Origin: a virus
Length of the DNA stretch: 55,315 bases
IMG/VR virus record: IMGVR_UViG_3300025325_000002
Direction: 5' to 3' (one strand)
Shown here: positions 44,581 through 45,623 of the stretch, piece by piece
How positions within the stretch are numbered: the stretch's first letter is position 1
Layout: each line of letters begins with the position of its first letter
Notes under the pieces: generated by a model
Database searches by the model: none
The model's input: only the letters and a program-made list of their open reading frames with translations
What the model was told of the DNA's origin: nothing
Position numbers and translations under genes: made by a program

Positions 44581-44925
44581 CTACTCAACGCGCCGGGCCT
44601 CCCCCGCGTAGATCGGCGGCAACTGCTCGAAGGCTTGGTCGAGCGCCGCCCGCACCTCTGCCGGCAAGGCGTTCCAGTCCGGCAGGTCCTCCTGCGAGGC
44701 AATGGTCACGTCCAGCCGCGTCGTCTTGCCCACCACCAGCTCGGTCACGCGCCTCAATTCCTCGACGAAGCGGTGCGTCGCCCACGCCGCCGTGAAGACA
44801 TCGTCCTGAGCTTCCGCCTTGCCTGCGAGACGGCGAAGCTCGTTGGTGCCCCAGTAGAGGTTGGCGATGACGTCGTTGGCATGCAGGCGCAGCGTCTGTC
44901 GTGGGGCAGTAGAAAAGGGTCCCAC
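44581..44925 (-). CDS. C-terminal domain segment (114 aa if started at GTG 44925; otherwise reached by a -1 shift at 44913-44919)
   Basis: High GC3. ...TLRLHANDVIANLYWGTNELRRLAGKAEAQDDVFTAAWATHRFVEELRRV...IYAGEARRVE*. No RBS before the GTG. Confidence 0.5.
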   Translation of the reverse strand: MGPFSTAPRQTLRLHANDVIANLYWGTNELRRLAGKAEAQDDVFTAAWATHRFVEELRRVTELVVGKTTRLDVTIASQEDLPDWNALPAEVRAALDQAFEQLPPIYAGEARRVE

Positions 44926-45248
44926 GGGGAGGGCGGGTGCTTGCGCTTCTGATGGCGGTGGTCGGCGTGATAGGCCCGCGCCAGCCGGCGCCACCGCAAG
45001 GCCTCCACCACCGTCGCCGGGAGAATCCACCACTGGTGCCCGAACCGCATCGCCGGGTTCGCCGGATGCGGGGCCGACAGGAACAGCATCTTCTGCCCGA
45101 GGTCCGCCCGCTCGCACACGTTGCGCAGCTCGTCGATGGTGTACCCGGCCAGGGCGGCCACCGTCGCGCGGTTGAGCCAGCCGTTCGGCGTCAGCCGCGC
45201 CGACCACGCCCCGGGCCGCGCCGACCACGCCCCGGGCCGCGCGGTCAC
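44754..45248 (-). CDS. HTH-like protein segment in the alternate frame (coding signal only from 45248 to about 44913)
   Basis: Track ORF. WLNRATVAALAGYTIDELRNVCERADLG...WWILPATVVEALRWRRL. After the CCCTTTT site the frame continues 52 codons with many A/T-ending codons. Confidence 0.55.
   Translation of the reverse strand: MTARPGAWSARPGAWSARLTPNGWLNRATVAALAGYTIDELRNVCERADLGQKMLFLSAPHPANPAMRFGHQWWILPATVVEALRWRRLARAYHADHRHQKRKHPPSPWDPFLLPHDRRCACMPTTSSPTSTGAPTSFAVSQARRKLRTMSSRRRGRRTASSRN
45195..45243. repeat. 21-bp tandem duplication (2.3 copies of ccgcgccgaccacgccccggg)
   Basis: Read directly. It encodes ARPGAWS x2 in one frame and AARGVVG x2 in the other. Confidence 0.9.
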
Positions 45249-45374
45249 GCGCCCGCCGCCGCGCCGTGGCGGCCTTCCGACGACACCGCCTCGAGCACCG
45301 CACGCGCAGCGGATGGGCGTCGAACGGCAGCGGCTGGTGGCATTCCAGGCACCGCCGCACCTCCCGCAGATCGC

Positions 45375-45623
45375 TCACGCCGCCGGGCCATGCCAGCGCG
45401 TCCTCGCCGCCCGCCGGGCGCGGTCCCGGACCCCCGCGGACGGCGCCATCGGCCGGGCGCGCGCGGGCATCGCCGGCAAACAGAAGACACACAGCTCCCG
45501 CCGGTGGCGGCGACACTGTCGCAGCGCCTGCCGGCTCCGGCGGAACTCCTCGATGGACACCACGGCCAGGACCACCCCCTGGGCGTCCATCAGCGTCACC
45601 GGGCTCGGGCTCTGGTCGTCCAT
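45375..45623 (-). CDS. Hypothetical protein, 82 aa
   Basis: Track ORF. High GC3. It starts 13 nt after the tRNA-like element. Confidence 0.65.
   Translation of the reverse strand: MDDQSPSPVTLMDAQGVVLAVVSIEEFRRSRQALRQCRRHRRELCVFCLPAMPARARPMAPSAGVRDRARRAARTRWHGPAA

Follow-up and report, generated by a model that had tools for sequence, protein, structure and literature searches.

Two switches of coding frame at a minus-strand phage locus, the second at a C CCU UUU heptamer, probably mark the borders of small overlapping genes

Within about 800 bp of the window (the whole stretch of viral DNA analysed here, 55,315 nucleotides), the coding frame of the minus strand changes twice, and the second change falls on C CCU UUU, a canonical -1 slippery heptamer. 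The question raised by this locus is whether the arrangement reflects recoding, one long translated frame, a faulty or decayed sequence, or a string of separate genes. The features involved are the following:

45637..45714, (-): tRNA-Met (CAT), found with ARAGORN, directly 5' of the gene string and given for context only.
45375..45623, (-): 82-aa ORF in frame 2, with a codon log-likelihood ratio (LLR) of +51 bits and its TGA at 45377-45375.
45250..45378, (-): coding part of the zinc-ribbon ORF, frame 1, start GTG 45378, with C-x2-C-x17-C-x3-C at about 45351-45280.
45202..45243, (-): two perfect copies of a 21-bp unit, inside a TRF array at 45194-45266.
44754..45248, (-): helix-turn-helix (HTH)-like ORF, frame 2, start GTG 45248, TGA 44756-44754, well coded to about 44920 (...PPSPWD).
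44913..44919, (-): C CCT TTT heptamer, read (GA)C CCT TTT in the HTH frame and CCC TTT (T), the Pro-Phe of LPVGPF, in the CT frame.
44581..44994, (-): CT gene, frame 1, encoding a helical protein, likely start GTG 44994 (137 aa, P0001), stop TAG 44581.
43863..44588, (-): downstream glycosyltransferase-like gene, start TTG 44588 behind GGGGAGG N9, overlapping the end of CT.

Both switches of frame are real. The coding signal runs in frame 1 from 45378 to about 45250, passes to frame 2 from 45248 to about 44920 and returns to frame 1 as far as 44581. In the GC3 frame plot, frame 1 shows values of 0.87-0.93 across 45400-45190, frame 2 of 0.93-1.00 across 45250-44950, and frame 1 again of 0.83-0.97 in windows within 44830-44560. 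A codon log-likelihood model agrees, its training set being 14 long genes of the window: over the zinc-ribbon stretch (45378-45250) frame 1 scores +4 bits versus -34 and -16 in the other two, over 45201-44914 frame 2 scores +85 bits versus -89 for frame 1, and frame 1 takes over with +27 bits versus -34 for frame 2 at 44913-44758 and with +70 bits at 44757-44584. Codons ending in A or T amount to 5 of 111 in the HTH frame versus 47 of 112 in frame 1.

These measurements bear out the initial annotation, which had recognized the neighbouring frame as the coding one between about 45248 and 44913 and the return of high GC3 to frame 1 from the heptamer to 44581. Its reading of the landmarks also holds. 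The ORFs confirm that GTG 45378 overlaps the upstream stop as GTGA (the TGA of the 82-aa ORF, 45377-45375) and opens a frame without a stop until 44581, C CCT TTT at 44913-44919 is indeed phased in the HTH frame, and the unslipped HTH frame runs through poor codons (LLR -34 bits) to the TGA at 44756-44754. The first switch likewise coincides with the 21-bp tandem duplication described there (perfect copies at 45243-45202). The unit being a multiple of three, this repeat leaves the frame intact and encodes ARPGAWS twice in the HTH N-terminus.

The open frames around these switches have to be read against base composition. Since the GC3 of the genes is 0.9-1.0, neighbouring frames are nearly free of stops, which creates the picture of a single ORF that changes frame; frame 1, which the zinc ribbon and CT share, has no stop between 45516 and the TAG at 44581. 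The zinc-ribbon/CT reading across a gene in the HTH phase meets 0.0056 stops per codon in this genome, with a probability of 0.55 of finding none in 108 codons, and the reading of the HTH ORF across CT meets 0.023 stops per codon (mean spacing, 43 codons). The absent stops are not beyond chance, and a run-on of 52-55 codons is the neutral expectation. Neither the HTH ORF nor the zinc-ribbon ORF, which formally extends to 44581, has a stop close to the end of its conserved part, and both fit the neutral stop density. The last ~55 codons of the HTH ORF are a Ser/Thr/Arg-rich run-on over the CT gene. In all four lineages in which the junction was compared, this ORF has no stop at or near it, overlaps CT by 170-240 nt and ends in a tail of 36-55 residues (36-50 in the relatives), which is unusual for ordinary neighbouring genes.

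We consider it probable that the frame switches mark the borders of separate, small, overlapping phage cistrons on the minus strand, and not recoding. The string would consist of the 82-aa ORF, the zinc-ribbon ORF, the HTH-like DNA-binding ORF, the gene for the helical CT protein and the glycosyltransferase gene. The HTH gene would begin at GTG 45248, and its protein would functionally end near ..SPWD, the remainder being a tail, neutral to selection, that runs on until a stop happens to occur. CT would have an initiation codon of its own, most likely GTG 44994 with GGAGG as its Shine-Dalgarno sequence, and would then overlap the last ~25 well-coded HTH codons. CCCTTTT would be the plain Pro-Phe (CCC TTT) of the LPVGPF of CT, and the A/T-ending codons there would be those typical of the 5' part of a gene.

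Support comes from CT, which belongs to a family of stand-alone proteins. An HMMER search of 1.8 billion representative proteins with a composite of the zinc ribbon, HTH and CT segments gave 26 matches, all to the CT part alone, and revealed no natural single-frame fusion of the HTH or of the zinc ribbon with CT. Family members share a conserved LPxGP(F/L/Y) motif near the N-terminus, which is also found after ATG-led leaders (P0010, P0020, P0024, P0005). Independent CT genes are present in relatives L012, L013, L018 and L019. In L013, CT follows an unrelated gene that ends at a stop of its own. The start of CT in L018 overlaps the stop of what is, from its translation, probably a DNA methylase, and a 25-aa leader comes before PLPLGPY. 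L012 has, in order, an HTH gene that ends at its own stop, a 55-aa gene and CT.

In the window, GTG 44994 lies behind GGTGGAGG N7 (GGAGG, 7-nt spacing). A Shine-Dalgarno sequence (SD) of this type also precedes the next gene; the alternative start GTG 44925 (114 aa) has none. CT was called as 137 aa on one of the other contigs and as 114 aa on the others. This SD and start are not clearly kept in L007, L011 and L014, and in-frame codon usage is poor over the CT leader (44994-44925). An AlphaFold2 model of CT built with an alignment reached a pLDDT of 85 (that of the composite without alignment, at 42, was of no use), and Foldseek searches of the CT model against PDB and BFVD returned generic helical-hairpin matches only (E > 0.2). 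The idea that CT is a small terminase found no support in these hits. TerL is placed at 37448-40264 and the portal gene at 34684-36402, and the 100-aa ORF directly upstream of TerL is, by position, a better TerS candidate.

The HTH and zinc-ribbon segments behave similarly in some relatives. Homologues of the HTH ORF were found in L007, L011, L014 and L012, the last of which (P0027, the single hit of a word-indexed protein search with an HTH profile) has its own start and stop. GTG 45248 has a weak G-rich sequence upstream only, and its place, 21 aa before PNGWL, matches that of the ATG of L014, 20 aa before PEGWL. L014 also carries, in the matching position, a 60-aa zinc-ribbon gene with its own stop, an 8-nt overlap with the HTH start and a frame different from that of CT; this correspondence is one of motif and synteny, BLASTP giving no significant match. 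Each segment thus exists as an independent ORF in some relative (CT in L012, L013, L018 and L019, HTH in L012, the zinc ribbon in L014 by motif and position). In all public contigs examined, the locus is mis-annotated: the HTH ORF was never called and a 247-aa ORF on the wrong strand was called instead.

Other searches added little to this set. Pfam and PHROGs gave nothing above threshold for the three segments, a PDB sequence search gave no match, and BLAST against 50,697 phage records gave none with the DNA of the region (blastn) or with the HTH ORF and the 1642-aa ORF (tblastn). The word-indexed protein search with the composite was also negative. IMG/VR scans with the HTH, CT and a DNA pattern of the junction returned nothing, and those with the glycosyltransferase and portal returned distant loci only, which lack the module. 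A CT-profile scan found two truncated loci in metagenome contigs and none in genome contigs. Substitution counts by codon phase between lineages were not decisive, the sequences being too diverged and the counts confounded by composition. The region 53586-54209, considered as a second case of a coding signal that ends before its stop, turned out to be a gene with a second half of lower GC3.

Programmed -1 frameshifting at C CCU UUU (44919-44913), proposed in the initial annotation, would produce an HTH-CT fusion of ~220 aa, that is, a DNA-binding head on a helical domain with the predicted junction peptide ...HPPSPWDPFSTAPRQTLR, together with the unshifted, tailed HTH protein. We regard it as unlikely. 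The heptamer is canonical, correctly phased and lies inside the switch zone, and the copy of CCCTTTT at 44919-44913 (-) is the sole one in the window. Confident genes here contain just 1 in-phase X XXY YYZ heptamer with Y = A/T per 8023 codons, a rarity that makes its position within a switch zone of ~15 codons non-trivial. In West Nile and JEV-group viruses, an identical C CCU UUU serves as the slippery sequence (PMC11797035).

L007 and L011, whose lineages are recorded under ENA ERZ1292642 and SRA SRR12113384, and L014 all switch frame and GC3 from HTH to CT where the window does, at a conserved junction (..C(T/C)C CCG TGG G..), and at the heptamer site L007 has C CCT TTA, which is slippery (C CCU UUA), but L011 has T CGT TTT and L014 C CTT TCA, which are not, despite the same switch and the same stop-less HTH ORF. 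X XXY YYZ is thus kept in one of the three diverged relatives that share the frame switch. The Phe codon TTT, rare in this genome (18 TTT versus 253 TTC), is retained at the heptamer in three of the four lineages (the window, L007 and L011), the HTH ORF is stop-less at the junction in all four, and GTG 44925 lacks an SD; these points would fit frameshifting. Against it, no stimulatory element was seen. The downstream 126 nt fold no better than shuffled sequences (z = -0.28), the consensus structure over the four lineages reaches just -1.0 kcal/mol, Rfam matched no element, and no SD-like element lies 10-14 nt upstream of the heptamer (sequence CCCGCCCTCCCC, the upstream 14 nt being pyrimidine-rich). 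A weak hairpin with a T-run at 44937-44921 was discarded as a terminator: its stem has 5 bp, and chance alone would give the region 0.7 such sites.

Further evidence against a slip comes from the downstream protein. CT homologues stand alone, CT has an SD-led start at 44994, another gene separates HTH and CT in L012, no single-frame HTH-CT fusion is found in the 1.8 billion representative proteins, and a slip at the heptamer would swap the conserved LPVG of the CT motif for SPWD. Seen as a whole, the orthologous loci speak largely against programmed frameshifting, with separate genes for CT (L012, L013, L018), HTH (L012) and the zinc ribbon (L014) and the heptamer retained in one relative. In a broader version, the stop-less HTH ORF of the four lineages would be the trace of conserved recoding by which the winged-helix domain is fused to the helical domain of CT, a reading to which we give rather little probability. 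Two lineages would then use a canonical site (C CCU UUU/A) and the others a non-canonical one, such as a slip in the P site on the invariant C CCG immediately upstream, and the phage would make HTH, CT and HTH-CT from two overlapping frames. Such recoding, if true, would be a new phage case outside tail-chaperone genes.

It is similarly improbable that the frame-1 ORF (45378-44581, 265 codons) is translated throughout into a zinc ribbon, a Gly/Ala/Pro/Arg-rich linker of ~110 residues and the CT domain. The HTH gene would then lie within the linker in another frame, through lineage-specific overprinting after loss of the zinc-ribbon stop. This ORF is uninterrupted, GTGA couples its GTG to the upstream gene, its frame is common to the zinc ribbon and CT, and the LPVGPF motif requires translation from upstream of GTG 44925. 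In addition, GTGA at 45248-45245 resembles a start/stop junction whose TGA is one base off the zinc-ribbon frame, as would fit a past 1-nt indel that removed the stop, and this state is fixed in many samples. However, the 96 middle codons score -89 bits in frame 1, the lack of stops is expected (P = 0.55), a shared frame is an unremarkable 1-in-3 chance, the zinc-ribbon gene of L014 has its own stop and a frame different from that of CT, and the HMMER composite search found no homologue of such architecture. Among the explanations offered in the initial annotation, that of overlap or overprinting comes closest to the data; in form, though, the genes would be separate cistrons with long out-of-frame overlaps, and not an HTH module placed inside an older gene.

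Sequencing or assembly indels, or a recently decayed zinc ribbon-HTH-CT pseudogene with two compensating frameshifts (one at the T4/C3 run and one in a GC-rich repeat, opposite in sign), are rejected, since other samples and assemblers yielded at least four more contigs of identical sequence, three diverged relatives show the same HTH/CT frame relation, the databases searched hold no single-frame ancestor-like protein and the long genes of the window are intact. These contigs, L008 (991 bp, JGI), L020 (54.8 kb), L021 and L022, match the window exactly and without gaps across 44478-45468 and beyond, including both shift sites, and differ from it solely at 46463-46515; independent contigs of the same phage were fetched with the glycosyltransferase-like gene as query, and 87 blocks of the collection hold a record of the neighbouring gene. 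Elsewhere in the window, genes terminate at their own stops, so there is no general indel noise.

With separate cistrons as the preferred reading, the locus defines a small conserved zinc ribbon-HTH-CT module, with an unusually long conserved overlap, in an abundant lineage of GC-rich groundwater phages. Our guess is that it is a DNA-binding or regulatory module placed between the replication and packaging genes. The locus also calls for caution in two respects: a GC3 near 1 keeps off-frames open for hundreds of codons, so that adjacent small genes can mimic a single frame-changing ORF, and Pro-Phe codons (CCC TTT) present by chance can mimic a frameshift signal.

Compared with known families, the HTH ORF resembles winged-helix/HTH proteins of the HTH_23, HTH_29 and HTH_17 type in the pattern W.T..DLA.ILG(V/Y)(T/S)....R..L.R.GL followed by a wing-like W..IP segment, and the zinc-ribbon ORF resembles small C4 zinc ribbons (YacG / FCS-TRASH-like) in its C-x2-C-x16/17-C-x3-C motif and basic tail, which is Arg-rich here and lies C-terminal to the motif. 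Pfam scores for these families fall below threshold, at which level membership is not established: the HTH ORF of the window has no match, its homologue in L012 (P0027) reaches 17.8 bits with HTH_23 against a cut-off of 24.6 (best HTH match, E = 0.003), and the best zinc-finger match has E = 0.005.

The likeness to programmed -1 sites (dnaX, IS3-family orfA/orfB, phage tail-chaperone G/GT, flavivirus NS1') lies in the phased X XXY YYZ, identical to that of West Nile virus, and in a well-coded domain in the -1 frame. In IS3 orfA the upstream ORF encodes a DNA-binding HTH, as at this locus. Unlike those sites, the one described here has no stimulatory hairpin, pseudoknot or SD-like element, its heptamer is not conserved in relatives of the same layout, its zero-frame ORF has no stop soon after it, and the downstream ORF belongs to a stand-alone family with its own start. 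Overlapping or coupled phage cistrons share with this locus the start/stop overlaps (GTGA at 45378, TTG 44588 with the end of CT), but the overlaps here are far longer than the usual 1-8 nt (170-240 nt between HTH and CT in four lineages) and the zinc-ribbon ORF lacks a stop of its own. As in spurious long ORFs of high-GC3 genomes, alternative frames are open, third positions are almost always G or C, and gene callers disagree.

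The phage-like genome has a GC content of 70% and carries nearly all of its genes on the minus strand. The locus under study sits just downstream of the tRNA-Met gene and comprises a zinc-ribbon ORF (ZnR), a helix-turn-helix-like ORF (HTH) and a gene for a helical protein (CT). The HTH and zinc-ribbon labels are putative, as they come only from sequence patterns and from Pfam scores below threshold. The features referred to are the following (bits from the codon model described below).

34684–36402, P22-like portal
37448–40264, minus strand, terminase large subunit (TerL)
41165–44588, minus strand, auxiliary block downstream of the locus (glycosyltransferase, hexapeptide-repeat acyltransferase, enoyl-CoA hydratase/isomerase, DHH phosphoesterase)
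HTH-to-CT junction to TAG 44581, minus strand, frame 1, CT stretch (+27, then +70 bits)
45248 to ~44920, minus strand, frame 2, HTH coding stretch (+85 bits vs −89)
From GTG 45378, minus strand, frame 1, ZnR stretch, weakly coding (+4 bits; other frames −34 and −16)
45623–45375, minus strand, frame 2, 82-aa ORF
45637–45714, minus strand, tRNA-Met (CAT), adjoining the string of small genes on its upstream side
51497–52981, DnaB-type helicase

The first ORF after the tRNA begins 14 nt on, with no recognisable SD. The auxiliary block lies between the regulatory module (ZnR/HTH/CT) and the packaging genes, and its enoyl-CoA hydratase is also syntenic in a relative's locus (L011). TerL is unusually long (~920–940 aa): residues 22–299, in its N-terminal part, match TerL PHROGs and residues 711–887 a PHROG of unknown function, and in the L014 lineage its counterpart (951 aa, from L014 5912 on) gives a faint Hint_2 (intein) match. 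TerL may carry an intein or other insertion.

The coding frame was read in two ways, by a GC3 frame plot and by a codon log-likelihood model with the long genes of the window as its training set, and both agree with the two frame switches described in the initial annotation. In the codon model the first switch falls anywhere from ~45261 to ~45177, and the optimum for the second is a plateau from ~44940 to ~44890 that covers both the heptamer C CCT TTT (44919–44913) and an in-frame GTG (44925). In the window's other genes the coding signal persists as far as the stop. The sole apparent exception, 53586–54209 (minus), was considered as a second case because its coding score fades ~360 nt before the stop, but it has a lower-GC3 second half and on inspection is one plausible Cys-rich protein with no switch of frame. 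The pattern at the locus is probably that of separate overlapping cistrons, whose borders resemble recoding because GC3 is extreme.

Assembly or sequencing indels, or a decayed gene, are effectively excluded, as four contigs of the same phage carry an identical locus sequence. L008, a 991-bp JGI contig with a recorded CT-frame product that starts at GTG 44994 (P0001), matches window 45468–44478 exactly with zero gaps; L020 (54.8 kb), L021 and L022, three representatives that differ in sample and assembler, are identical over the entire locus and differ only around a poly-G tract (46463–46515). At ~46483–46492 (minus) the window has a G10 run, where L021 has G11 and L022 an interrupted run (GGGGGGAGGAG), and a few substitutions lie nearby; this apparently intergenic variable stretch (46483–46515) could be a hypervariable or slippage-prone homopolymer, or else a weak point of the assemblies. 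Records of the neighbouring glycosyltransferase occur in 87 blocks of the collection, most of them from groundwater metagenomes. Public gene calls on the four contigs omit the HTH ORF altogether; in its place they put a spurious opposite-strand ORF, of 247 aa in L020 and L022 and of 111 aa in L008, and they assign CT a length of 137 aa on one contig but of 114 aa on further ones.

The layout of the window recurs in three lineages, L007, L011 and L014–L017, whose CT is ~40% identical to that of the window. In all three the HTH-like ORF (GC3 0.88–0.96) extends to a conserved DNA block, C(T/C)C CCG TGG G, beyond which the CT frame takes over (GC3 0.86–0.92). There is no HTH stop at the junction; the ORF continues for 36–50 codons as a Ser/Thr/Arg-rich off-frame reading of CT. 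Stop densities of off-frames were measured in the window's own genes. The HTH-ORF frame across CT has 0.023 stops per codon (mean spacing 43 codons), and the observed run-ons of 36–55 codons are as long as chance would make them in a gene lacking a dedicated stop. The ZnR/CT frame across an HTH-phase gene, where stops need T at third codon positions, has 0.0056, and the probability of no stop in 108 codons is 0.55.

At the first switch, the 21-bp repeat noted initially is real but, being a multiple of three, cannot cause the frame change. In L014 a 60-aa ZnR gene (C-x2-C-x16-C-x3-C) lies directly upstream of the HTH ORF and ends at its own TGA, 8 nt into it. The L014 HTH ATG is placed 20 residues ahead of PEGWL and the window's GTG 45248 21 residues ahead of PNGWL, a parallel that supports GTG 45248 as the putative HTH start. 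The two zinc ribbons are alike only in motif and position, and BLASTP between them gave nothing significant. The window ZnR ORF has no stop; GTGA at 45248–45245 resembles a start/stop junction with its TGA one base off the ZnR frame, and it is reasonable to infer that a 1-nt indel once removed the stop.

That open frame would also suit translation of the entire frame-1 ORF as a ZnR-linker-CT protein with the HTH gene nested in it, which we consider unlikely. When 1.84 billion representative proteins were searched exhaustively by HMMER with a composite ZnR+HTH+CT query, 26 were returned, all matching the CT part only; CT is thus a family of small proteins, typically ~105–260 aa as called. Unrelated genes precede CT in three relatives' loci (L013, L018, L019), and in L012 an HTH homologue with its own stop (P0027) is followed by a 55-aa gene and then CT. 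The CT AlphaFold2 model (pLDDT 85) shows a long helical hairpin and a short helix at the C-terminus; no significant structural neighbour was found for it. In the family alignment the N-terminal motif (P)LPxGP(F/L/Y) is conserved, and in several members (P0010, P0020, P0024, P0005) it stands behind a short ATG-led leader.

As a separate cistron, CT is probably expressed from GTG 44994 (frame 1), which has GGTGGAGG upstream at 7-nt spacing, the same kind of signal as precedes the next gene (TTG 44588); upstream of GTG 44925 there are pyrimidines only. This start yields P0001 (137 aa), in which a leader, of 23 residues, precedes LPVGPF as in other family members. Over the last 24 codons before the junction identity is 71% in the CT frame vs 46% in the HTH frame, counted by eye on L007 and L014 translations. 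GTG 44994 is not clearly conserved and codon usage over 44994–44925 follows the HTH frame; therefore, the exact start is one that we infer. In all four lineages the same A/T-ending rare codons (GGA, TTT, TCT, ACT, CCA, CGA) are seen right after GTG 44925.

Programmed −1 frameshifting at C CCU UUU is equally improbable in our estimate. It is favoured by an HTH ORF that never stops at the junction and by the rarity of the heptamer in phase: CCCTTTT lies in the switch zone, as first annotated, and occurs once in the whole window, and phased X XXY YYZ heptamers (Y = A/T) number one per 8023 codons of confident genes. That one, G GGA AAG inside TerL (40022–40028, minus), is probably due to chance. 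Against frameshifting, three of its four testable expectations failed. The window encodes the CT motif A-L-P-V-G-P-F as GCC CTC CCC GTG GGA CCC TTT, and the heptamer is its Pro-Phe pair, read with the phase off by one base. The relatives have C CCT TTA (L007), T CGT TTT (L011) and C CTT TCA (L014) at this position; the frame arrangement is conserved, the tandem-slippery site is not. No unusual structure was found in the window RNA downstream of the heptamer (z = −0.28), no conserved one across the four lineages and no Rfam family match. A weak hairpin at 44921–44937 (minus; 5-bp stem CCCGC/GTGGG) followed by ACCCTTTTCT forms a terminator-like pattern ending on the heptamer, with ~0.7 such sites expected by chance in the region; L007 allows another small stem, GGCCC/GGGCC, to be drawn there. 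In favour of frameshifting, the heptamer itself is canonical, and West Nile virus has C CCU UUU as its slippery site (PMC11797035).
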